Source: a virus. From it: a stretch of DNA of 10,457 nucleotides. The notes under the pieces are model-generated. The model searched no databases, was not told the origin of the DNA, and was given only the letters and a program-made list of their open reading frames with translations. How positions within the stretch are numbered: position 1 is the stretch's first letter; each line of letters begins with the position of its first letter. Shown piece after piece: positions 1-10,457 of the stretch. Made by a program: the position numbers and the translations under genes. The stretch is from the UHGV virus genome UHGV-2079495. The stretch is one strand, 5' to 3'.

Positions 1-903
1 TTATGAAAGCATAGACCGTTTACCCTCCCTGGGTACGACGGAACAGGGGTCCTGATGGATAATCACATCCGATCCCGGAAAACGCCGTAAAATAGCCTGC
101 TCTACCTGATCCGCCACCATATGTGCCTGAACCAAAGGCAGAGAGTCTTCCATTTCCAAATGAATCTGAATAAAGCGGGTCGGCCCTGACTGCCGCGTGC
201 GAAGATCGTGAGCGCCGCTAACACCCGGCCAGGAAGTCACGATATCAATAATTTCTTGCCGTTCCTCATCAGGCAATGCGCGATCCAGTAATGACTGTAC
301 CGCCTCATATCCCATGCGTAACGCGCTATATAAAATATAGATGCCGATTCCCAATGCAAACAGAGCATCGGCGCGATGCCAGCCGTACCAGGACAACCCC
401 AGCGCCAGCAGAATTGCGCCGTTCATCATAACATCAGACTGGTAATGTAGCATATCAGCCCGCACCGCCTGGCTTTGCGTCCGGCGCACCACCCAACGCT
501 GAAACGAGACAAGGATAATCGTACAAATTAGCGCCACAATTGTCACGATAACCCCGACGCCTGGATCTGTCATCGGTGTTGGAGATATCAGATGTTGAAT
601 ACCCGTCAAAAACAGGAATAGTGCCGAACCGGAGATAAACATACTTTGCGCCAGCGCCGCGAGGGACTCTGCTTTACCGTGACCAAACGAGTGATTATCG
701 TCGGCAGGTTGCAGGGAATATCGCACCACCAGTAAATTCGTCAACGACGCGCCGATATCCACCAGCGAATCCACCAGCGCGGCGAGAATACTCACCGACC
801 CGGTATACCACCATGCAAAAATTTTAATCAGCAATAGCAACGAAGCCATCGCCGTCGCAGCAATCGCCGCCCGACTGACCAGCCGTCCATAAGATTGATT
901 CAT
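1..903 (-). CDS. fieF: Cation-diffusion-facilitator family ferrous-iron/zinc efflux transporter FieF (YiiP), complete; the window begins at its stop codon
   Basis: The 306-aa ORF translation contains, from the internal Met ([37 protein letters not shown]...), a 300-aa protein that I recognise as essentially full-length enterobacterial FieF/YiiP. It has multiple hydrophobic TM segments and a C-terminal cytoplasmic domain. Minus-strand SD GGGAG lies about 8 nt upstream of the ATG at 901-903. The ATG at 919-921 is an in-frame upstream alternative, judged less likely. Confidence 0.93.
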
Positions 904-929
904 AAATACTCCCGCTATCAACTGACGCT

Positions 930-959: not shown

Positions 960-984
960 ATTAAGCAGCAGGCAAATTGAGGAT

Positions 985-1011
985 AAAAAAAACCCCCACA
1001 TCATGTGGGGG
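985..1011 (-). terminator. Rho-independent terminator (minus strand): 8-bp GC-rich stem CCCCCACA/TGTGGGGG, 3-nt loop, then a U8 tract
   Basis: Plus strand reads AAAAAAAA-CCCCCACA-TCA-TGTGGGGG. On the minus strand this is a hairpin immediately followed by TTTTTTTT. Confidence 0.7.
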
Positions 1012-1102
1012 AAGACAGGGATGGTGAAGAAATCCGGCCAGTAACACAATGGAATAAAAGGATTTATTCTAATCTTCGTCTACATTTTGACTACACTTCG
1101 AC

Positions 1103-1128
1103 AAAAAAAGCCCCGTGCATTACGGGGC
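1103..1128 (-). terminator. Rho-independent terminator (minus strand) directly downstream of the cargo operon: 7-bp stem GCCCCGT/ACGGGGC, 5-nt loop, U7 tract
   Basis: Plus strand reads AAAAAAA-GCCCCGT-GCATT-ACGGGGC, beginning 12 nt beyond the stop codon (1140-1142 on the minus strand) of the secreted-protein gene. On the minus strand it is a hairpin followed by TTTTTTT. Confidence 0.75.
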
Positions 1129-1139
1129 TGCACACCGCA

Positions 1140-1772
1140 TTACTTCCATCCACACGCTTTTTGAAGTGGCTTCAATGCCTCAGACAGACCAGCAACATCA
1201 AATGTCGCGCTCACGGGACTTTCATTGTAAGGCGTGATCTGAGTAAACATTGAGTTAGCCTGGCTCAGCGCCTTGACGAACTCAATGACATTGCCACGAT
1301 AAAATACCGATTTGGTATCGCTAGATATGTCCCATGTTTTCGTTTTTGCCTTCTGTTTATCCAAGCGAGATAACATCTGTGTTTCGTTCAACCCAAGATA
1401 GGTATCCCAATTGAGGAAAAGTTCTGTTTTTTTCTCGCGGCAAGTGATGTAAAGACTTGGTGTGATCGATTCCCCAAACTGTGACCGGAAAGAATCATTA
1501 GCAGAAAGGCTAATATAAACATTCTCTGAATCATCCACGGGTGAAGTTTTCGTGGATACCTGCCATTTTCCAACACCTACCACTGGCTTAGCCTCTTCGG
1601 CTACTTTCGGTGGAAGAACCTTATCGTAACAAGCTAAACGCGCATCACTTTTTGCCTCGGATTGGCATTTCATTAATGCGTCATTGTTAATATCGGCTTT
1701 AACTGGTTCTACCGCATACGCTGTTGATACAGCAGAAGAGCAAAGCGCCATAGCAATGATTATCTTTTTCAT
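1140..1772 (-). CDS. Secreted/periplasmic protein of unknown function with a Sec signal peptide and four Cys; carries a CYD motif. Family assignment (possibly VasI-like/DUF) is unverified
   Basis: ORF 1140..1787. The N-terminus MKKIIIAMALCSSAVSTAYA-VEP is a classical signal peptide with an AYA SPase I site. The preferred start is the ATG at 1772-1770, with AAGG about 8 nt upstream. The alternative ATG at 1787-1785 overlaps the upstream gene's stop as ATGA. The mature part is hydrophilic with Cys in MKCQSE, RLACYD, ITCREKK and KACGWK. A few hand-counted 60-nt lines give roughly 40-45% G+C. Confidence 0.7.
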   Translation of the reverse strand: MKKIIIAMALCSSAVSTAYAVEPVKADINNDALMKCQSEAKSDARLACYDKVLPPKVAEEAKPVVGVGKWQVSTKTSPVDDSENVYISLSANDSFRSQFGESITPSLYITCREKKTELFLNWDTYLGLNETQMLSRLDKQKAKTKTWDISSDTKSVFYRGNVIEFVKALSQANSMFTQITPYNESPVSATFDVAGLSEALKPLQKACGWK

Positions 1773-1783
1773 ACCATTACCTT

Positions 1784-2116
1784 TCATGATTTCGGGCGAG
1801 TAAAGAAAACAAACATTCCGATAATGATATCGCCAATAACCCAGATGGTTCCCAGCATCATCATCCCCAGCCCCGTACCAATTGCGGCTCCGGCCCGTTC
1901 TGCGTCTGAGGCTGCGTTATTGATAACGTCACTACTGCCGCCAGCCCCGGCAAAAATGCAATAGATCATAAAGATGTTAAACAGGATAAAAATCCATTTA
2001 ACGATCTTGCCAAATAATGAGCGCTTCGGCTTTCTGACCTGATGGCCGCAAGACGGGCATTTAAACGCTGAATCACTAATTTCTTTACTGCATTCCGGGC
2101 AGTTTACTAATGCCAT
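1784..2116 (-). CDS. Small zinc-ribbon membrane protein (N-terminal CPxC...CPxCG zinc ribbon, two predicted TM helices), unknown function
   Basis: ORF 1784..2137. Motif ...VNCPECSKEISDSAFKCPSCGHQ... is followed by hydrophobic stretches IVKWIFILFNIFMIYCIFAGAG and AAIGTGLGMMMLGTIWVIGDIIIGMFVFF. Preferred start is the ATG at 2116-2114 (MALVNCPEC), with GGAG/AGGA upstream; ATGs at 2137 and 2131 are alternatives. The stop overlaps the start of the downstream gene (ATGA), suggesting translational coupling. Confidence 0.65.
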   Translation of the reverse strand: MALVNCPECSKEISDSAFKCPSCGHQVRKPKRSLFGKIVKWIFILFNIFMIYCIFAGAGGSSDVINNAASDAERAGAAIGTGLGMMMLGTIWVIGDIIIGMFVFFTRPKS

Positions 2117-2180
2117 TTTCCTAGACTCCATAGACATGGTTACATAACCGCCATAAAGCCTATCAGTTGATTTTGTTTGA

Positions 2181-2215
2181 ATAAATAAAAATTAACCCGC
2201 CATATAGGCGGGTTA
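2181..2215 (-). terminator. Rho-independent terminator downstream of ogr (minus strand): 9-bp stem TAACCCGCC/GGCGGGTTA followed by a U-rich tract
   Basis: Plus strand 2193-2215 is TAACCCGCC-ATATA-GGCGGGTTA, flanked by A/T-rich sequence on both sides, so it could act bidirectionally. It lies immediately 3' of the ogr stop (2218-2220) on the minus strand, followed by AATTTTTATTTATT. Confidence 0.65.
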
Positions 2216-2217
2216 TT

Positions 2218-2460
2218 TTAGAGTGCCAGCGATAACTGATCTTCGCCGTGGTGACTTCGTGGAAAAGCTTCTTGTGGCACCATCGCGCCGGGCACTGGCT
2301 GGGTCTGATTTAGTGAACCGTCTATTTCCGTCATGCTGGTGAAACAGTACCCGCACAACATATTTTGACACTGGTGATAGCTGCGCCGTACAAGCAAACT
2401 CAGCTCAACGCTGGTTCTGGTTTTTGCTATTGCACGGCAGCGAGGACAGCGCATTGCCAT
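2218..2460 (-). CDS. ogr: P2 Ogr/Delta-family zinc-finger late-gene transcriptional activator
   Basis: 80-aa ORF MAMRCPRCRAIAKTRTSVELSLLVRRSYHQCQNMLCGYCF... has the Cys arrangement C-x2-C...C-x4-C and the RYHQCQN-like core I recall from P2 Ogr (about 72 aa). Strong SD AGGAGG lies 7 nt upstream of the ATG at 2460. It sits immediately downstream of gpD, as in P2. Confidence 0.85.
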   Translation of the reverse strand: MAMRCPRCRAIAKTRTSVELSLLVRRSYHQCQNMLCGYCFTSMTEIDGSLNQTQPVPGAMVPQEAFPRSHHGEDQLSLAL

Positions 2461-2498
2461 ACGCGGGCCTCCTTTCAGGACTGGTTAATATCAACGCA

Positions 2499-2527
2499 AG
2501 TATAACGCTTAAGACGTTGAATCGTCA
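2499..2527 (-). promoter_or_regulatory. Candidate sigma70 promoter for ogr (minus strand: TGACGA-N17-TATACT), overlapping the 3' end of D
   Basis: Minus-strand -10 TATACT at 2504-2499 and -35-like TGACGA at 2527-2522 with a 17-nt spacer, about 40 nt upstream of the ogr ATG. Judged by eye. Confidence 0.35.
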
Positions 2528-3627
2528 CTCTCCGCTGTCCAGTCGTCGATTTTTACTTCCAGTTCCAGCGACGTGGTAAACCCTCCCCCGCCAATATCGT
2601 GAACGCACCGCGTTATCGTCCAGTTCCCACTGTCGATCGTGGACTTAAAGCCGTAGACGCTGGCGGGCTGTTCCGGGTACAAATCTGCGCGGCCACGCGC
2701 TAGGGTGATGCTGAACGTCGCCGCCCCACGCTGCAACTCTCGCCACTTAGCCGCAGCGGCACGCTTCGCCGCCTTTTCCGTCTTGAAAGTTTTACGGATA
2801 ACAAAAACGTTACCTTCGGCCCCGGCCAGATAATCCCCTTCTTTTTTGCTTGATGCAGGTTCTTTCTTTTTGGCCTGGCTGGTGCGTCGCCTGCGGGTGG
2901 TTTTCTTCACGGTAGTGGATGGCTTTTTGCCAAAGTTGAGATCAAGCCAGTATGCAGTTACGCCCGTGTACGCGTCGCGGTCAGCTACGTTAAACCTATG
3001 TTTATCACCGCTTGACCGGACGATCTCGATCACTGGCAACGGCTTGCCGCTTTGCGTTACTCCCTTGCCCGGCGTGATAAACAGAAGCATACCGTTTTTA
3101 ATGGTTGCCACCGCGCCCAGCATTTCGGCCATACGCGTTAAGAAGCTGATATCTGATTCACTCGTCTGATCGGCGTGGTCTATCTCAATCTTCGCCAGTT
3201 CTTCGCTGACACCCGCACGCAGATCGTAGCGGCTGGCAATGCTGGCGACCACATCCCCCACGGTAATATCGTGCCAGCTATATTCCCGCTTCACGTTGAA
3301 GGTATCGCGGAAATCTGCGCTTCTGGCACTGATCGTTAGCTGGTCAGGCGGGCCAGCGTGTCCGATCTCGTCAACCGTATACACGCCCTTAAAAACCAAT
3401 GGATCATTATCCCAGCCCAGCGCCACCGATATCTTTGCGCCGCGTGATGGTAATGCTACCTGCCCGTCTGCATCATCCAGAGTCAGATCCAGTGTGTCCG
3501 CTTCGAAGCCCCGGTTATCTGTCAGGGAAAGGGAGATCAGCCGGTTATCCAGCGCCGTAAGCTGCTTACCTTCAATCTCAATACTGAACGCCGGGCGCGG
3601 CGAATATCGGTTTTCTGTCGTGTCCAT
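2509..3627 (-). CDS. D: P2 gpD-family tail protein (phage late control gene D protein)
   Basis: 372-aa ORF. Size (P2 gpD is about 387 aa) and position adjacent to ogr match, and the sequence character (MDTTENRYSPRPAFSIEIEGK..., C-terminal GGGGFTTSLELEV) fits the late-control-D family as I recall it. SD GAAGGGG lies upstream of the ATG at 3627. Confidence 0.88.
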   Translation of the reverse strand: MDTTENRYSPRPAFSIEIEGKQLTALDNRLISLSLTDNRGFEADTLDLTLDDADGQVALPSRGAKISVALGWDNDPLVFKGVYTVDEIGHAGPPDQLTISARSADFRDTFNVKREYSWHDITVGDVVASIASRYDLRAGVSEELAKIEIDHADQTSESDISFLTRMAEMLGAVATIKNGMLLFITPGKGVTQSGKPLPVIEIVRSSGDKHRFNVADRDAYTGVTAYWLDLNFGKKPSTTVKKTTRRRRTSQAKKKEPASSKKEGDYLAGAEGNVFVIRKTFKTEKAAKRAAAAKWRELQRGAATFSITLARGRADLYPEQPASVYGFKSTIDSGNWTITRCVHDIGGGGFTTSLELEVKIDDWTAESDDSTS

Positions 3628-3694
3628 ATCAACCCCTTCATCATGATGGGGTACATCGTCGCCACGCGCGCGCGCATGAACAACGCCCCGTCAT

Positions 3695-3762
3695 TGTTGC
3701 AGGTTGCTGACAACCCTTATTCATCGCATCGGCCTGCCATTGCCGCAATGATATTCGCAGTC
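3695..3762 (+). promoter_or_regulatory. Candidate Ogr-dependent late promoter (PF-like): TGT-N12-ACA dyad at 3695-3712 plus a -10-like GATATT at 3750-3755
   Basis: Sequence TGT-TGCAGGTTGCTG-ACA (extended TTGT...ACAA), centred at about 3703.5. That is about 55-60 bp upstream of a transcription start predicted from the -10-like hexamer, matching the architecture of P2 late promoters (TGT-N12-ACA centred near -55). It is followed by SD GAGG and the FI ATG at 3785. Confidence 0.55.
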
Positions 3763-3784
3763 ATTAAACTGGCGAGGCAAATAC

Positions 3785-4978
3785 ATGGCCACTAACTACC
3801 ATCACGGTGTAACCGTCACGGAAACCACCGACCTTAGCACGATGATCACCGACATTGATTCTGCGGTGATCGGCGTTGTCTGCACCGCTGATGATGCGGA
3901 CGAAACAGCGTTCCCGCTGGATACCCCTGTACTGATCACCCGCGTGGCTAACATGCTGGGCAAGGCAGGTAAAACCGGCACCCTGTTTACCACCCTGAAA
4001 GCGATTTCAGACCAGACCAGCCCGCAAACCATTGTGATCCGCGTTGCTGATGCTGCAAATATCGAACCGCCAGAAGGCGGCACCGCACAGACACAGGATC
4101 AACTGGTTATTGGCGGCACCGATGCAAACGGACGCTTTACCGGCATGTACGCGCTGCTGTCTGCCGAAATGCGCGTAGGCGTGCGCCCACGTGTGCTGGC
4201 TGTTCCCGGTCTTGATACGGAAGCGGTGGCCGCACAACTCGGCGTCATTGCCGAAAAGCTGCGCGCGTTTGCTTACGTGGCAGCGAACGGCTGCAACACT
4301 ATCGCCGAAGTGAAGGAATACCGCGAACAGTTCTCCCAGCGTGAAATGATGGTTATCTGGCCTAATTTCATCTGCTACGACACCAACGCCGGGGCGAATG
4401 CCACCGTGCCCGTGGGTGCCCATGCGGTTGGGATGCGCGCCAAAATCGACGCAACGCAGGGCTGGCATAAAACCATTTCCAACGTGCCCGTTAATAACGT
4501 GCTGGGGATGGATCGGGATATCTATTTCACGTTGCAGGGCACCGATACCGACGCCGACGAACTGAACGCAGCAGGCGTTACCACGCTGATCAAGCAGGAC
4601 GGCTACCGCATCTGGGGATCGCGTACCTGCGACGCGGAAACGTATATCTTCGAAAGCTATACCCGAACCGCGCAGATCGTTGCGGATACCGTCGCCGAAG
4701 CCCATTTCGCCTATGTTGATAAACCGCTTACCCCGTCGCTGGTAAAGGACATTGTGGACGGCATCAATAAGAAGCTGACCTCATATGTGACGGCTGGCAA
4801 GCTGCTGGGCGCCCGCTGCTGGTATGACCCGGAACCGAATACCTCGGAAACCCTGCGCAATGGTCAACTGACCATTAAGTACAACTACACCCCTGTTCCA
4901 CCGCTGGAAAATCTCAGCCTGGTACAGGAGTTCACCGACGAATATTTCGCTACGTTTTCCAGCGCAGTGAATAACTAA
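3785..4978 (+). CDS. FI: P2 gpFI-family contractile tail sheath protein
   Basis: 397 aa (P2 FI is about 396 aa). N-terminus MATNYHHGVTVTE... and overall sequence recognised as the myovirus P2-type sheath. Followed at a 12-nt spacing by the tube gene. Confidence 0.93.
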   Translation: MATNYHHGVTVTETTDLSTMITDIDSAVIGVVCTADDADETAFPLDTPVLITRVANMLGKAGKTGTLFTTLKAISDQTSPQTIVIRVADAANIEPPEGGTAQTQDQLVIGGTDANGRFTGMYALLSAEMRVGVRPRVLAVPGLDTEAVAAQLGVIAEKLRAFAYVAANGCNTIAEVKEYREQFSQREMMVIWPNFICYDTNAGANATVPVGAHAVGMRAKIDATQGWHKTISNVPVNNVLGMDRDIYFTLQGTDTDADELNAAGVTTLIKQDGYRIWGSRTCDAETYIFESYTRTAQIVADTVAEAHFAYVDKPLTPSLVKDIVDGINKKLTSYVTAGKLLGARCWYDPEPNTSETLRNGQLTIKYNYTPVPPLENLSLVQEFTDEYFATFSSAVNN

Positions 4979-4990
4979 CCGGGGGCGCTT

Positions 4991-5506
4991 ATGGCACTGC
5001 CTAAGAAACTCAAATATTTCAATATGTTCTTTGACGGGGATAACTACTTCGGCATGGTGCCGGAAATCACCCCCGCCAAACTCACCAAAAAAACCGAAGA
5101 CTACCAGGCGGGCGGTATGCCGGGTTCAGTTGCGGTGGATCTGGGCTTCGACGCTGGCGCCCTGGATATGGATATTACGCTGGGCGGCATGGATGCCGGG
5201 CTAATGAAAAAATGGGGCGTTACCACTGCGGACGGAATGCAGGTGCGCTTTGCTGGCTCTTACCAGGACGATGCGACCGGCGACGCCGTACCGTGCGAAA
5301 TCCAGACGCGTGGCCGCTTCACTGAACTGGATCCCGGTTCGGCAAAGGTTGGGGATGATACTTCGCATAAGTACACCCTGAAAAATACCTATTACAAGCT
5401 GACCATCAATAGCGAAGAAATTATCGAAATTGATGTGCTCAACATGATCTACAAAGTTGCCGGTGTGGATGTGCTGGAAAAACACCGCGCTAACATCGGC
5501 TTATAA
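4991..5506 (+). CDS. FII: P2 gpFII-family tail tube protein
   Basis: 171 aa (P2 FII is about 172 aa). Conserved position between sheath and E. N-terminus MALPKKLKYFNMFFDG... is typical of P2-like tube proteins. SD GGGGG upstream. Confidence 0.9.
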   Translation: MALPKKLKYFNMFFDGDNYFGMVPEITPAKLTKKTEDYQAGGMPGSVAVDLGFDAGALDMDITLGGMDAGLMKKWGVTTADGMQVRFAGSYQDDATGDAVPCEIQTRGRFTELDPGSAKVGDDTSHKYTLKNTYYKLTINSEEIIEIDVLNMIYKVAGVDVLEKHRANIGL

Positions 5507-5520
5507 GGAAACCCGGCACC

Positions 5521-5856
5521 ATGAGCAAGACCAAAGAAAACACCGTTATTCTTACCGCCCCTATTACGCGCGGTAAGACCAAAATCACCGAAGTGGCGAT
5601 CACTTCCGTGCTTAAACAGGCTGGATCACTGCGCGGCTTAAAAGCCTATGACGTGCTGACGTCCAACTATGACGCGCTGGTTATTCTGCTGCCCCGCGTT
5701 ACCGCTCCGGCATTAACCGCCGATGAGATTGCCCGAATGGATACCTGGGATTTTTGCCAGTTAGCCAACGCGGTGGTTGATTTTTTGCAACCCTCTTCGG
5801 ATCTGACCGCGACGGATACGGGCAACGAATCATCCGATGCCCCTGCGAACGCATAG
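5521..5856 (+). CDS. E: P2 gpE-family tail assembly chaperone (zero-frame product)
   Basis: 111-aa ORF immediately after FII and before the tape measure. Contains the TTTTTTG slippery heptamer near its 3' end. SD AAGGAAAC upstream. Confidence 0.85.
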   Translation: MSKTKENTVILTAPITRGKTKITEVAITSVLKQAGSLRGLKAYDVLTSNYDALVILLPRVTAPALTADEIARMDTWDFCQLANAVVDFLQPSSDLTATDTGNESSDAPANA

Positions 5857-5981
5857 AAGACCTGATGGCAGATATCGCCGTCATATTCCACTGGCGGCCG
5901 GTAGAGATGGACGCCATGACGGTACAGGAAATACTGTTATGGCGTGATCAGGCGGCTGCGCGCAGTGGTGGAGATCACTAA
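5521..5981 (+). CDS. E': gpE+E' tail assembly chaperone fusion made by a programmed -1 ribosomal frameshift at 5781-5787
   Basis: After a -1 slip on T-TTT-TTG (zero-frame codons GAT TTT TTG at 5779-5787), my hand translation from 5787 reads ATLFGSDRDGYGQRIIRCPCERIEDLMADIAVIFHWRPVEMDAMTVQEILLWRDQAAARSGGDH. This open frame stops at TAA 5979-5981, which directly abuts the tape-measure ATG at 5982, the same arrangement as P2 E/E'/T. Confidence 0.7.
5781..5787 (+). promoter_or_regulatory. Programmed -1 frameshift slippery heptamer TTTTTTG (X XXY YYZ in the E frame)
   Basis: Exact heptamer in the correct phase (T-TTT-TTG) relative to the E reading frame. The -1 frame is open for 64 codons and ends exactly at the T start. 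Confidence 0.7.
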
Positions 5982-8900
5982 ATGGCAGACCGCAATTTAA
6001 ATATCAGGGTGGCATTCAGCGCCCTGAATAATATGTCCCGCCCTGTCAACGCGGCGCGCCAGAGTGCCGCCGCGTTGGCGTCTCAAATCAATCAGACCAA
6101 AACCAGCATTAAAGGGCTTGAGCGTCAGGCAACCAGCTTTGACCGCCTCACCGCAGCCAATAAAAAAACCACCGAACAACTGGCCCAGGCGAAAGAACAG
6201 GCCCGGCAAATGGCGGCGGCTTATGGCCCGTTACGCCAGCGCAGCGCCGAACAGGTTGCCGCCCTCAATCAGCAACGTGCAGCCATTCGCCAGTTAACCC
6301 AGCAGCAGAAAGGCGAGCAGACGCAGCTTAACCAGTTGCGCGCCAGCTTCTACAGCGAAGGCATTGCGATCAGCAGCGCCAGCCGGGCGACGGAACAGAT
6401 CAACCAGCGCACCGCGCAATACAACCGCCAGCTTGCCGAACAGCAGCGACGGCTTGACGCTGTTAACCAGGCGCAGGCCCGTTACAGCCGCGCCAAAGAA
6501 ACCGGCGAAAAGATGATGAGCGGGGGGATGAAAACCGCCGCAGTAGGGGCGGCAACCCTCGCACCTGTCGCCGCTGCGGTTAAATCATACAGCAGCCTTG
6601 AAGACGCCATGAAAGGCGTAGCCAAACAGGTAAACGGCTTGCGTGACGACAGCGGCAACCGCACCCCGCAGTATGAAGAAATGCAGCGGGCGATCATGGA
6701 TGCCAGCGAAAAGCTACCAATGGCTAACGGCGCTGTTGACTATGCCGCCCTGGTCGAAGGTGGCGCGCGCATGGGCGTGGCAAACAGCGATGATCCGTGG
6801 GAAAAACAAAAAGCCGATCTGCTGGCTTTCGCCAGCATGGCGGCAAAAGCTTCGGTAGCCTTTGAACTGCCCGCCGATCAGCTTTCTGAAAGCCTCGGTA
6901 AGATTGCCGGGCTGTATAAAATCCCTACCCAGAATATTGAACAGTTAGGCGACGCCATAAACTACCTGGACGATAACGCGAAGTCGAAAGGCTCCGATAT
7001 TATCGACGTGCTCCAGCGCGTTGGCGGACTTGCCAGCCAACTGGATTACAAGCAAGCCGCCGCGCTGGGTTCCACCTTCCTGACGCTTGGATCACCTGCC
7101 GAAGTTGCCGCCAGCGCAACCAATGCAATGGTGCGCGAACTATCGATCGCCACAGTACAAAGCGATAAATTTTTGGGTGCGCTGGATGAAATCGGCATCA
7201 ATGCTGAAAAAGTCCAGAAAAGCATGTCAGTGGACGCGATGGGCACGATCATTTCAGTGCTGGAAGCGTCCAAAAAACTTGCACCAGATAAGCAGGTAGC
7301 CAACCTTACTCAGATTTTCGGTAAAGAGTTCGGCGATGATGCGCAGAAACTTGCGAACAACCTGCCCGAACTACGCCGCCAGATAGAACTGACGCAGGGC
7401 GCAGCCGCTAAAGGTTCCATGAATCGGGAATCTGATATCAATAAAGCGTCCCTTTCAGCTCAGTGGCAACTGACCAAAACCGGCGCGGTTAACGCATTGA
7501 GTTCAGCAGGGGAAACGCTCCGCGAACCGCTGATGGATATCATGCTTACCGTCAGTAAGGTGGTTGGCAGCGTCCGCCGCTGGGTTGAGGCAAACCCGGC
7601 TCTGGTTGGCTCAATCATGAAAGTCACCGCAGCCATAGGCGCGTTGCTGGTTGTCGTGGGTGGCCTGATGCTGACCATCGGCGCAGTGCTCGGCCCGATG
7701 GCACTTGTTCGCCTCAGCTTCACCACGCTGGCTGGCTCCGGTGGGGTAACTCCCCTCATAGGCTCGCTGGGAAAATTATCCAGCACATTACGCGGGCTGA
7801 TCCCCTCACTATCTGGCGTGGGCCGAAGTATTAAAGACTGGCCTGCCCTCTTCCGATCTGCTGCGTCTGGCATTACCCAATTTAGTAAACAAGCTATTGG
7901 CGGGTTAAACACAGCGTTAATGGCACTTTCACGCGGTGCTGTTGCTGCCGGACAGGGGCTATTTACCCTATTCACAAGGCCTATGACGGCTATAACCTGG
8001 CTTGGTAATGGCCTCAGAACTCTGGCGACCTCCGGTTTCGGCGCTTTGCTGAACGTTGGACGCACCGTAATGATGGCGTTGGGTGGCGGGTTATCATTAC
8101 TTCTTAGCCCTATTGGAATACTGGTAATCGCTTTATCAGCAGCAGCGATCGCCGTTATTAAATTCTGGGAACCTATAAAAGCCTTTTTCACTGGCTTTTA
8201 CACCGGGTTAATGAGTGGCTTACAGCCTTTAACCTCAGCATTTAGTACAGCCTTTGCACCACTAGCCCCACTCTTTGACTCTATCGGTAATGCTGTCGGT
8301 GGCGTCTGGGAGTGGTTCACAAAACTATTCGAACCTATCCAGTTCTCCAGCGAAGCGCTAGCCTCCTGCACCAGTGCCGGGGAAACGTTCGGTAAGGTTG
8401 TAGGTAACGCTCTATCTGCATTAACACCAATAATCGAAGGAATAGCGCGCGGTATAGGATGGGTACTGGAAAAACTCGGCGCCATCCCCGACGCAACAAA
8501 AGCAGCGCAGCAAGCTGCGGAAAGTATGCACAAAGACCCTGTTGTCTGGGAGTGGGATCCGCAGCAAAAGAAAATGGTTAAAAAGGGTTGGAACTGGTCG
8601 CCGAAAGACGATCAGCAGAAGAAAACCAACCAGAAGCAACAGCAGGCCATTGACCAGCAGAAAAAGCAGGAAAGCTTAATTAACTCGCTCAAGGGCCCGG
8701 CCAACATCGTGCCGAAGATGAGCAGCAGCCTGGATAAGATCGCCACCAATACCACGGAGAAGAAAGACGGCCCCGGCGAAATTGTCTTCAAGAATAAGCA
8801 GCCCTATATCCCGATCCGTGGTGGATATTCGGAACCGCTTAAGCAGGTGCAGCGCCAACTACCATCCCTTACCGATTGGGTGACGCAGCAGGCCGGATCG

Positions 8901-9152
8901 CTGATCGCTTCCGTTACGCCTTGGCAGGTTGAGAAGCCCGCCGCACGGATGCCTGTTTCGGCGTCTCCGTCTGCGGCTTCCGTCGCTGCGCTGATGCCTG
9001 CTCCGGGTGGCGATGTATATAACCTTAACTTCGACTTTAGCGGCCAGAAACTGGATGAAGAAACCATTATCAGGCGCGTGCGCGAAGAACTTGCGTTAGC
9101 GAAGCAACAGGCCGACCGGCGCAAGCGCTCCCAACTGACCGATCACGTCTAA
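5982..9152 (+). CDS. T: Tail tape measure protein (P2 gpT family)
   Basis: 1056-aa ORF immediately after E/E'. N-terminal Q/A-rich, coiled-coil-like region, a central hydrophobic Gly/Ala-rich segment and a C-terminal K/Q-rich region, typical of tape measure proteins. Position between E' and U is as in P2. Confidence 0.9.
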   Translation: MADRNLNIRVAFSALNNMSRPVNAARQSAAALASQINQTKTSIKGLERQATSFDRLTAANKKTTEQLAQAKEQARQMAAAYGPLRQRSAEQVAALNQQRAAIRQLTQQQKGEQTQLNQLRASFYSEGIAISSASRATEQINQRTAQYNRQLAEQQRRLDAVNQAQARYSRAKETGEKMMSGGMKTAAVGAATLAPVAAAVKSYSSLEDAMKGVAKQVNGLRDDSGNRTPQYEEMQRAIMDASEKLPMANGAVDYAALVEGGARMGVANSDDPWEKQKADLLAFASMAAKASVAFELPADQLSESLGKIAGLYKIPTQNIEQLGDAINYLDDNAKSKGSDIIDVLQRVGGLASQLDYKQAAALGSTFLTLGSPAEVAASATNAMVRELSIATVQSDKFLGALDEIGINAEKVQKSMSVDAMGTIISVLEASKKLAPDKQVANLTQIFGKEFGDDAQKLANNLPELRRQIELTQGAAAKGSMNRESDINKASLSAQWQLTKTGAVNALSSAGETLREPLMDIMLTVSKVVGSVRRWVEANPALVGSIMKVTAAIGALLVVVGGLMLTIGAVLGPMALVRLSFTTLAGSGGVTPLIGSLGKLSSTLRGLIPSLSGVGRSIKDWPALFRSAASGITQFSKQAIGGLNTALMALSRGAVAAGQGLFTLFTRPMTAITWLGNGLRTLATSGFGALLNVGRTVMMALGGGLSLLLSPIGILVIALSAAAIAVIKFWEPIKAFFTGFYTGLMSGLQPLTSAFSTAFAPLAPLFDSIGNAVGGVWEWFTKLFEPIQFSSEALASCTSAGETFGKVVGNALSALTPIIEGIARGIGWVLEKLGAIPDATKAAQQAAESMHKDPVVWEWDPQQKKMVKKGWNWSPKDDQQKKTNQKQQQAIDQQKKQESLINSLKGPANIVPKMSSSLDKIATNTTEKKDGPGEIVFKNKQPYIPIRGGYSEPLKQVQRQLPSLTDWVTQQAGSLIASVTPWQVEKPAARMPVSASPSAASVAALMPAPGGDVYNLNFDFSGQKLDEETIIRRVREELALAKQQADRRKRSQLTDHV

Positions 9153-9161
9153 GGCAATATC

Positions 9162-9611
9162 ATGATGATGATTCTGGGGATGTTCCCCTTTTCACTGCAA
9201 ACCACACCTTACCAGAGTGCGAATAAAACCAACTCCTGGCGGCACGTCAAAAACGATCGCGTGGGGAAATCCCCGCGCTATCAGTTCATCGGCGCAGATG
9301 AAGAACCGTTCGTACTCAGCGGCACGCTGTACCCCGAAATAAGCGGCGGTGATGTGTCGCTTGTCATGCTGGAAACTATGGCTTTTTCCGGGCGCCCGTG
9401 GCCCCTGATAGAAGGCACGGGCAGGATCTACGGCATGTATGTAATTGAGCAGATCACGCAAAACCGGACGGAGTTTTTTAAGGACGGGAAGGCAAAGAAA
9501 ATTGATTTCACGCTCAACCTGAAACGGGTAAGCGAGGACATACGGGAAAAGCTGGCTGAAACCACTACCGACGATCTCTTCTCTCTGGTGAAAACCAACC
9601 TTTCGATATAA
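9162..9611 (+). CDS. U: P2 gpU-family tail protein
   Basis: 149 aa (P2 gpU is about 159 aa), directly downstream of T (9-nt gap, SD AAGG). N-terminus MMMILGMFPFSLQTTPYQ... resembles gpU as I recall it. Confidence 0.85.
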   Translation: MMMILGMFPFSLQTTPYQSANKTNSWRHVKNDRVGKSPRYQFIGADEEPFVLSGTLYPEISGGDVSLVMLETMAFSGRPWPLIEGTGRIYGMYVIEQITQNRTEFFKDGKAKKIDFTLNLKRVSEDIREKLAETTTDDLFSLVKTNLSI

Positions 9612-9614
9612 GAA

Positions 9615-9640
9615 AAGCGGGCCATTGCCCGCTTCGTCTT
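9615..9640. terminator. Hairpin AAGCGGGC-CATT-GCCCGCTT between convergent U and invertase genes; possible bidirectional terminator
   Basis: 8-bp stem at 9615-9634, 4 nt after the U stop. The plus-strand downstream tract CGTCTTCC is only weakly U-rich; the minus-strand tract (TTTCTTATA) is better, but the stem lies about 85 nt from the invertase stop. Confidence 0.4.
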
Positions 9641-9717
9641 CCGTAATACACCACCATAACTGACCGTGCTACAGCACCGTTAAAAGTGACCGTACTCGAT
9701 ACACACGGCCAGCACGG

Positions 9718-10299
9718 TTATAACCGGCCATGCGTGCCGGAATTCTTATCTCTGGTCGCTGGGAATTTTTTGTAAAGCGTAGATATCCCAACATCATAAA
9801 TTATGGCAACCCTCCGGCGCGATTCCCCTGCCGCTATTAACCTACCCGCCTGCGCCCATTGTTCTGGTGTTAGTTTTGGACGTCTACCGCCGATCCTTCC
9901 CTGCGCGCGAGCGGCCACCAGTCCTGCACGCGTACGCTCGACAATCAATTCTCTTTCCATCTCTGCCAGTGCTCCCATAACATGAAAAAAGAAACGCCCC
10001 ATTGGTGTTGAGGTATCAATACTGTCAGTCAGGCTGCGGAAGTTCACGGAACGTTGCTTTAGTTCCTCCACCAGAATGACCAAGTTCCGCATACTCCGCC
10101 CAAGACGATCCAGCTTCCAGACAACAAGCGTATCTTCTGGAGAAAGGCGCTTTAGTAATTTTTTAAGCCCTGGCCTTTCCGCTGTTCTCCCGCTCATTTT
10201 ATCTTCAAAAATTATCTCACATCCTGACCGCTCAAGCGCATCACGTTGCAAAGCCGTGTTCTGGTCATTTGTTGATACGCGCACATATCCAATAAGCAT
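9718..10299 (-). CDS. pin: Serine-recombinase DNA invertase of the Pin/Gin/Cin/Hin family
   Basis: 193-aa ORF MLIGYVRVSTNDQNT...DTLVVWKLDRLGRSM...SLTDSIDTSTPMGRFFFHVMGALAEMERELIVERT...STLYKKF. It is near-collinear with E. coli e14 Pin and Salmonella Hin as I recall them, with the catalytic Ser in the RVSTNDQ motif and a C-terminal HTH. SD AAGGAA upstream of the ATG at 10299-10297. Confidence 0.93.
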   Translation of the reverse strand: MLIGYVRVSTNDQNTALQRDALERSGCEIIFEDKMSGRTAERPGLKKLLKRLSPEDTLVVWKLDRLGRSMRNLVILVEELKQRSVNFRSLTDSIDTSTPMGRFFFHVMGALAEMERELIVERTRAGLVAARAQGRIGGRRPKLTPEQWAQAGRLIAAGESRRRVAIIYDVGISTLYKKFPATRDKNSGTHGRL

Positions 10300-10353: not shown

Positions 10354-10379
10354 TTTTCAAAAACGTTCGTTTTGGAGGA
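10354..10379. other. Candidate 26-bp invertase crossover site (gix/hix/cix-like): TTTTCAAAAACG-TT-CGTTTTGGAGGA with a 2-bp core at 10366-10367
   Basis: Imperfect inverted repeat of 12-bp half-sites around a central TT/AA dinucleotide. The half-sites resemble the hix/gix half-sites I recall (TTATCAAAAACC and TTATCCAAAACC). It lies 55 bp upstream of the invertase start, as gix/cix sites do next to gin/cin. Confidence 0.6.
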
Positions 10380-10382
10380 ACC

Positions 10383-10457
10383 ATGCAACCGCTTGTTACC
10401 GGTGACTCAATTGCATATGTTCCTATCGGAGCGCAGACATTGATTATTCAGATTGGC
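10383..10457 (+). CDS. 5' end of an ORF beginning just inside the putative invertible segment (MQPLVTGDSIAYVPIGAQTLIIQIG...); function unknown, runs off the window
   Basis: ATG at 10383 preceded by a strong SD, GGAGG at 10374-10378, which lies inside the right half of the crossover site. Only 25 codons are visible. It is not in the supplied ORF track, presumably because it is below the length cut-off. Confidence 0.3.
   Translation, partial: MQPLVTGDSIAYVPIGAQTLIIQIG

Follow-up and report, generated by a model that had tools for sequence, protein, structure and literature searches.

The tail genes of phages P2 and Fels-2 are all read in one direction. In the P2 record, FI, FII, E/E′, T, U, D, and ogr follow one another on the same strand, and transcription of the F operon (FI through D) is annotated as starting just upstream of FI; in the Fels-2 record, the fiber segment, the invertase that adjoins it, FI through D, and ogr are co-directional as well. 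D is in both phages the last gene of the operon read from the late promoter PF and overlaps U, FI rather than U faces the fiber genes and invertase, and PF carries a TGT-N12 dyad upstream of FI. Here we analyze a 10,457-nucleotide stretch of the virus genome UHGV-2079495 (the window in what follows), which has the same eight gene families, the E/E′ frameshift signal, and a terminator after ogr followed by an attachment site, but in which the canonical co-directional FI-FII-E-T-U-D-ogr order from PF is not found. D and ogr lie on the minus strand, FI-FII-E/E′-T-U occupies positions 3785–9611 on the plus strand, and a serine invertase gene on the minus strand adjoins U. These assignments, made from the list of open reading frames and Pfam scans, bear out each gene and strand given in an earlier, sequence-only reading of the window, and the P2 record confirms the canonical order and orientation that this reading had given.

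D (2509–3627, minus strand), which encodes the tail baseplate hub protein (Pfam Phage_GPD), and FI (3785–4978, plus strand), which encodes a tail sheath protein with three Pfam sheath domains, diverge from an intergenic region that measures 157 bp (3628–3784), as had been stated. At the far end of the block, U (9162–9611, plus strand; tail protein, Pfam Phage_P2_GpU, 4.7e-39) is the last of the flipped genes, and a gap of 106 bp (9612–9717) separates it from the invertase gene (9718–10299, minus strand), whose product is a serine DNA invertase of the Gin/Cin/Hin type with a Resolvase match (8.4e-50) and a C-terminal HTH_7 match (3.9e-13) in Pfam. On the other side of D lies ogr (2218–2460, minus strand), the gene for the zinc-finger activator of late transcription (Pfam Ogr_Delta, 1.5e-13). 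Relative to P2 and Fels-2, only the FI–U block is inverted. A clean flip of this block is the correct description, because in phage SEN5 only FI-FII-E-E′-T-U opposes D, ogr, and all of the head, lysis, baseplate, and fiber genes, which share one strand. The sequence-only reading had described the locus in just these terms, with D diverging from FI and with U, not FI, abutting the invertase.

The Salmonella phages SEN4 and SEN5 (Peduoviridae, Senquatrovirus) have the identical layout, D on the minus strand and FI–U on the plus strand, together with the 157-bp D–FI gap, the dyad within it, and the attachment-site core, both of which are described below. They match window positions 982–9809 in three collinear pieces at 93.7% identity, with 65% of the window covered. 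Genera are delimited by the ICTV at about 70% nucleotide identity over the whole genome, and the comparison with Senquatrovirus is one of 93.7% identity over 65% of a 10.5-kb window that leaves the other ~25 kb of the prophage uncovered. At the protein level, D is 99.7% identical to D of SEN5 and ~49% identical to D of P2-type phages, FI is 94% identical to the SEN5 protein and 53.5% to that of P2, and U and Ogr are 98.7% and 99% identical, respectively, to their SEN5 counterparts. SEN4 and SEN5 form plaques and make contractile-tailed myovirus particles (PMC5261728). The same flip is present in phages that are far more divergent, as the proteins of Escherichia phage P88 (Xuanwuvirus) and Klebsiella phage 3LV2017 (Reginaelenavirus) are only 50–64% identical to those of the window. 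P88 has exactly the window order, with fiber, assembly gene, inverted alternates, invertase, and U-T-E′-E-FII-FI followed by D on the other strand, and in 3LV2017 FI–U is flipped as in the window and the invertase is missing. P88 can be induced and is lytic on E. coli, and phiSM, a phage of Citrobacter rodentium, shows spontaneous activity (PMC6456863).

We scored the strands of D, FI, and U with tblastn across a phage collection. Of the 46 records in which D has 60% identity or more to that of the window, 44 have D opposite U, and the remaining two are KSP20, a 6-kb fragment that is not scorable, and CP052639.1, to which we return below. Records with a D at most 55% identical are co-directional (Fels-2, RE2010, SEN8, and P2-type, Burkholderia, and Ralstonia phages), and this order was checked on the annotation of P2, Fels-2, SEN8, vB_YenM_201.16, RSA1, and LPM4. 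A genomic survey, in which one genome per bacterial species was scanned with the D protein, returned 52 loci; FI lies near D in 46 of these, and the two genes are divergent in all 46. The loci come from ~20 Enterobacterales genera, including Salmonella, Citrobacter, Enterobacter, Klebsiella, Hafnia, Pectobacterium, Photorhabdus, Xenorhabdus, Yersinia, Providencia, Morganella, Brenneria, Serratia, Erwinia, Pantoea, and Edwardsiella. An invertase stands beside U in the window's orientation in P88 and in seven loci (L015, L016, L027, L042, L043, L049, and L053). Neighbor-joining trees of D and of FI, built with only six canonical references and no bootstrap, show the 44–45 distinct flipped sequences as monophyletic relative to the six canonical phages, in agreement with the clean identity gap between flipped and canonical records. 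Locus L005, whose D and FI are identical to those of the window, groups with SEN5 and L006 in both trees.

Judged by these alignments and trees, the FI–U inversion is a trait of long standing that is fixed in a single monophyletic Enterobacterales clade, and it is no defect of this copy. The clade as delimited by the same comparisons includes Senquatrovirus, Xuanwuvirus (P88), Reginaelenavirus (3LV2017), and many prophages, and the window locus is, on this evidence, a SEN4/5-like prophage laid out as is standard in this clade. The inversion is known in the sense that it is visible in deposited, annotated genomes. The sequence-only reading had held that the divergent arrangement would be normal for the lineage if a populous clade of functional P2-like phages shared it, and such a clade is what the records contain; because a working P2-like clade shares the flip, it is ordinary for the lineage and neither damage nor chimera. 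Of the three origins that the reading had put forward, the lineage-specific architecture stands, while a rearrangement in a decaying prophage and the juxtaposition of two different elements are contradicted by the collinearity with SEN4/5, the shared layout of P88 and 3LV2017, the 46 of 46 loci, the trees, and the intact genes.

A recent rearrangement in a decaying, non-functional prophage would account for a layout that departs from P2, 186, and Fels-2, and only one prophage end is visible in the window, but we regard this origin as very improbable given that plaque-forming SEN4/5, active P88 and phiSM, and 46 of 46 genomic loci have the same layout. The genes themselves also speak against decay. 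The full P2-like tail and late-control set is present (FI, FII, E, T, U, D, and Ogr; seven of seven with Pfam matches), and each of the eight genes has its full length and a strong match to its family. Within the block, FI is followed on the plus strand by FII (4991–5506; tail tube, Pfam Phage_tube, 4e-61), E (5521–5856; chaperone, Pfam Phage_TAC_7), and T (5982–9152; tape measure protein of 1056 aa, Pfam PhageMin_Tail). The slippery sequence TTTTTTG lies at 5781–5787 in the frame of E, the −1 frame is open to 5981, directly before the ATG of T at 5982, and an E+E′ frameshift product would be encoded at 5521–5981. P2 has an annotated E/E′ −1 frameshift arranged in the same way, and by its sequence the P2-type arrangement of slippery site and frame is intact in the window. 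Nor are breakpoint repeats present: the short inverted repeats that the sequence-only reading had suggested for 3628–3784 and 9612–9717 are absent, no inverted repeats pair the block ends, and the 25 longest such pairs are scattered over the region. A slight shift in composition across the window, the cargo genes beside ogr, and genomes in which D-ogr occurs without FI–U within 10 kb (L046, L047, L050, and L054) could instead be taken to mean that a D-ogr remnant of one phage has been joined to the tail module and invertase of another. Such a junction is equally hard to credit, as the trees of D and of FI agree in clade structure and each puts the window next to SEN5, L005, and L006, D (99.7%) and FI (94%) are both closest to SEN5, and the sequence at the junction is itself conserved throughout the clade, in keeping with the collinearity with SEN4/5.

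It seems more improbable still that FI–U can switch orientation through the action of the invertase beside it, or that the flip is an assembly error. The 47 loci scorable for D, FI, and U share one orientation, the sole exception being CP052639.1, and the window's order recurs in independent metagenome contigs. In most of the clade the block is flipped although there is no invertase, and the block ends are not paired by inverted repeats or by crossover-like sites; the candidate 26-bp crossover site described below is unique in the window, and a loose half-site pattern has no partner in the D–FI gap. What lends some color to these ideas is that the invertase adjoins U, that contigs with the invertase break at the invertible fiber segment, that the end of U holds a weak hix-like half-site, and that CP052639.1 shows a different order, although with a split sheath gene. 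A divergent D and FI–U in an enterobacterial P2-like prophage is the mark of a large and successful clade (SEN4/5, P88, phiSM, and many Klebsiella prophages) and should therefore not be taken as a sign of decay, chimerism, or misassembly.

For the expression of D in this layout, P2 offers a precedent in which two divergent late promoters share one activator site. A single site is annotated in the P2 record as "activator binding site; pO, pP promoters" at 3057–3087, with starts at 3016 (minus strand, P) and 3127 (plus strand, O). These starts are 111 bp apart and lie 55.5 nt either side of the center of a TGT-N12-CCA sequence, the form in which Ogr sites annotated in the P2 record read, and nAnnnT hexamers (TAGCCT and GAAACT) are found 43.5 nt from the center on each side. 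The D–FI gap of the window has the same geometry, with one dyad between what would be two divergent late promoters; in P2 the arrangement serves the packaging and head operons and the starts are mapped, whereas the version in the window would serve D-ogr and FI–U from starts that are predicted.

The dyad of the window, TGTTGCAGGTTGCTGACA (3695–3712, center 3703.5), is a predicted Ogr binding site and has the form TGT-N12-ACA, which we take to be the pattern of P2-family Ogr sites. It is the sole match to this pattern in the window, where ~1.8 matches would be expected by chance in all and ~0.03 in the D–FI gap. The predicted −10 of PF (AATGAT, 3747–3752, plus strand) and the predicted −10 of a D promoter, PD (GACGAT, 3655–3660, minus strand), each begin 43.5 nt from the dyad center, and the starts predicted from these hexamers alone, ~3759 on the plus strand and ~3648 on the minus strand, are 111 bp apart and each ~55.5 nt from that center. 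The predicted D start is 21 nt upstream of the D ATG, with a ribosome-binding site, AAGGGG, between them. On the D side, a predicted −35-like element (TTGTTC, 3678–3683, minus strand) lies 17 bp upstream of the −10, and the spacer between its TTG and the −10 hexamer holds an alternating CG block (CGCGCGCGCGC, 3665–3675; hereafter the CGCGCGCG block). The sequence-only reading had found no obvious promoter for D by eye, a statement now superseded by the conserved dyad and the symmetric −10 hexamers in the 157-bp gap.

A core of ~110 bp in this gap aligns almost without gaps across 46 distinct relatives. In this stack the dyad is never gapped, is always 18 nt long, and always holds the same position, reading TGT-N12-ACA or TGT-N12-AGA outside Providencia; the right arm is ACA in the window and AGA in P88. 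A2 and T6 of the hexamer are found at the exact 43.5-nt offset in 45 of the 46 relatives on the FI side and in 43 on the D side, while the other hexamer positions are variable on both sides, and the TTG of the −35-like element and the CG block are likewise conserved. The conserved control core of the clade consists of −10, CG block, 18-nt dyad, and −10 at fixed spacing. Fels-2 PF has GAACAT at the same offset from its dyad, and neither the P2 nor the Fels-2 sequence has a D-side −10 hexamer opposite PF. SEN5 has similar dyads upstream of V (TGTGGCGGGTTGGTGACA; predicted V promoter) and between P and O, and its P/O region has on the P side a CGCGCGCG block (L001 ~30491–30500) at the same distance from the dyad and, likewise at the matching offset, the hexamer TAGCCT. 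Separately, four Providencia loci (L017, L018, L045, and L055) read TCTC-N10-GAGA where other relatives read TGTC-N10-GACA, so that both arms have changed together, as would be expected of a site that co-evolves with a dimeric binding protein.

From this geometry and conservation, we consider it likely that the locus as a whole is explained by a clade-fixed FI–U inversion together with one dyad-symmetric Ogr site that serves both PF and PD. The inversion would have placed the PF control region back to back with D, so that a single symmetric Ogr site (3695–3712) would serve two divergent late promoters. PF would start at ~3759 and read FI through U, and PD would start at ~3648 and read D and probably continue into ogr, which has probably retained a promoter of its own as well, at the end of D. 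If the two promoters are of the P2 PP/PO type, transcription from both should depend on Ogr and on the alpha subunit of RNA polymerase. At the other end, the FI–U unit and the fiber/invertase unit would converge on a hairpin at 9614–9635.

An unlikely alternative is that D is expressed from an Ogr-independent promoter, such as a sigma-70 promoter, constitutive or under some other control, that lies in the gap or close to it, with the dyad activating PF only and the symmetric D-side hexamer not acting as a −10. The conserved −35-like TTG at 17 bp from the D-side hexamer could allow a promoter to work without an activator, the conserved CGCGCGCG block has no assigned role, and a second minus-strand match to consensus, TCGCCA-16-TATCAT, lies inside the gap (3775–3748). 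This match falls in a poorly conserved part of the alignment, however, and an Ogr-independent promoter gives no reason for a spacing held over ~110 ungapped bp, nor for an exact mirror hexamer at 43.5 nt in 43 of 46 relatives that reproduces the geometry of P2 PP/PO. A plain scan for sigma-70 consensus in the window found 10 sites against 9.0 expected from shuffled sequence and cannot by itself locate the D promoter.

Several points weigh against the proposal of a clade-fixed inversion with a shared Ogr site. About half of the relatives have TGT-N12-AGA, not ACA, and the PD −10, GACGAT, matches TATAAT at just three of six positions. P2's own PF starts 57.5 nt from its dyad center, not 55.5 nt. 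The counts of 43 to 45 in 46 come from phylogenetically related sequences and are not independent observations, and for the whole clade PD is predicted from sequence geometry and conservation. The evidence for intactness covers the 10.5-kb window, with the remaining ~25 kb of the prophage outside it. Finally, papers on SEN4/5, P88, and phiSM do not mention the inversion, and general literature searches yielded nothing relevant.

A broader proposal strikes us as evenly balanced between true and false: that the dyad symmetry of the Ogr site is the reason why the inversion was first tolerated and later became fixed, that the newly formed D-ogr late promoter independently recreates the shared-site design of PP/PO, and that the CGCGCGCG block is an undescribed, lineage-specific late-promoter element. 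If the predicted shared-site promoter is real, the inversion of an operon has been absorbed by the reuse of a symmetric activator site, and D, the baseplate hub gene, would have become the first gene of its own late transcript, co-transcribed with ogr.

The rest of the window shows where the locus sits. Positions 1–921 (minus strand) encode a FieF-type cation efflux protein recognized by Pfam, the product of host fieF, and 982–1026 is a prophage attachment-site core of 45 bp that shares 100% identity with the attP regions found in Wphi, fiAA91-ss, and other P2-like phages. The SEN5 nucleotide match starts at 982. Because the FieF gene is followed by an attachment-site core at which the phage match begins, the sequence identifies the window as one end of a P2-like (Peduoviridae) prophage integrated beside fieF and as close kin of SEN4/5. 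From left to right, the phage part comprises the attachment-site core, two cargo genes, ogr, D, the flipped FI–U block, the invertase, and the edge of an invertible fiber segment. An intrinsic terminator with a 9-pair stem and a T run (2193–2215, minus strand), found in a terminator scan, lies directly after ogr and closes the D-ogr unit, and P2 has a terminator in the same position. A sigma-70-like candidate for the ogr promoter, GTGACG-18-TATACT (2499–2528, minus strand), was found by consensus scan at the 3′ end of D, the same place as the −35/−10 annotated between D and ogr in P2. The hairpin between the converging FI–U and fiber/invertase units (9614–9635) is GC-rich, with 9 pairs followed by TTTTCTT on the minus strand; it makes a good terminator on that strand and a weaker one on the plus strand, where the T run is interrupted. 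An Rfam scan of the window at gathering thresholds returned zero matches.

The two cargo genes (1140–2137, minus strand) lie between the ogr terminator and the attachment-site core and encode a VasI/TagO-like protein, of a family associated with type VI secretion systems (3.4e-13), and a small zinc-ribbon protein. Both are present in L005 (97.6% identical) and absent from SEN4/5, and the zinc-ribbon gene is ~72% identical in PhiR44_2, 500465-2, and phiSM.

The invertase is 71–85% identical to the invertases beside U in P88, L043, and L053. A candidate crossover site of 26 bp (10354–10379; 12+2+12, TTTTCAAAAACG TT CGTTTTGGAGGA), a near-palindrome that presumably resembles hix/gix sites, marks the edge of the invertible fiber segment; one copy is found in the window, and its partner would lie outside. 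An open reading frame that starts at 10384 (plus strand), just downstream of this site, runs off the window end at 10457, and 10354–10457 is probably the crossover site together with a silent gene of the fiber segment. Opposed tail-fiber-assembly genes stand beside the invertase in L067, which has the same invertase, and in P88. Metagenome contigs that carry the window's invertase (identical proteins) end at the invertible fiber segment, as expected if both orientations occur in the population. SEN4/5 have no invertase and keep only ~90 nt of its 3′ end: the last ~90 nt of the gene (9718–9809) align with a non-coding stretch between U and the fiber-assembly gene of SEN4/5 (L001 ~18480–18572), which, from this alignment, seem to have lost the invertase and the invertible segment by deletion.

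The last codons of U (9585–9611, plus strand), where the flipped block ends on the right, read GTGAAAACCAACCTTTCGATATAA, and the left half of this sequence appears to us to resemble a hix/gix half-site, TGAAAACCAA. The half-site pattern is matched at 9592–9603 with one mismatch, where 1.6 matches are expected by chance, and the match is probably due to chance, because it has no partner at the other boundary and lies in coding sequence.

T is mosaic, as its segment 7736–8138 has no nucleotide match in SEN5, L005, or L006. The tape measure protein is 1056 aa long in the window, 974 aa in SEN5, and ~815 aa in P2; relative to SEN4/5 the middle segment is replaced, and tandem repeats, sought in T as a source of the extra length, were not found. 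An open reading frame of 50 codons (3643–3795, plus strand) runs across the D–FI promoter region and has counterparts annotated as hypothetical in SEN5 (SEN5_27) and P88 (gp50). Since Pfam gives no match to it and it reaches into the gapped part of the alignment, it is probably not a gene.

In one paper on the xnp1 tailocin of Xenorhabdus, a variable fiber region adjoins the sheath gene, which suggests canonical order there, and we dropped this lead. CP052639.1 (L004), a linear 32-kb Klebsiella pneumoniae record named "plasmid unnamed", was deposited as a plasmid but is the genome of a P2-like phage that belongs to the flipped clade. We rejected it as a third architecture: its sheath gene is divided between the two strands in two partial pieces, the invertase is truncated, and from its sequence it looks like a rearranged or misassembled record. 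At four loci of the genomic survey, in Yersinia ruckeri, Erwinia amylovora, Brenneria, and Providencia (L046, L047, L050, and L054), D or a fragment of D occurs without FI–U genes within 10 kb. No ogr was found beside D at the Providencia locus, ogr does stand beside D at the other three (L046, L047, and L050), and all four are probably prophage remnants.

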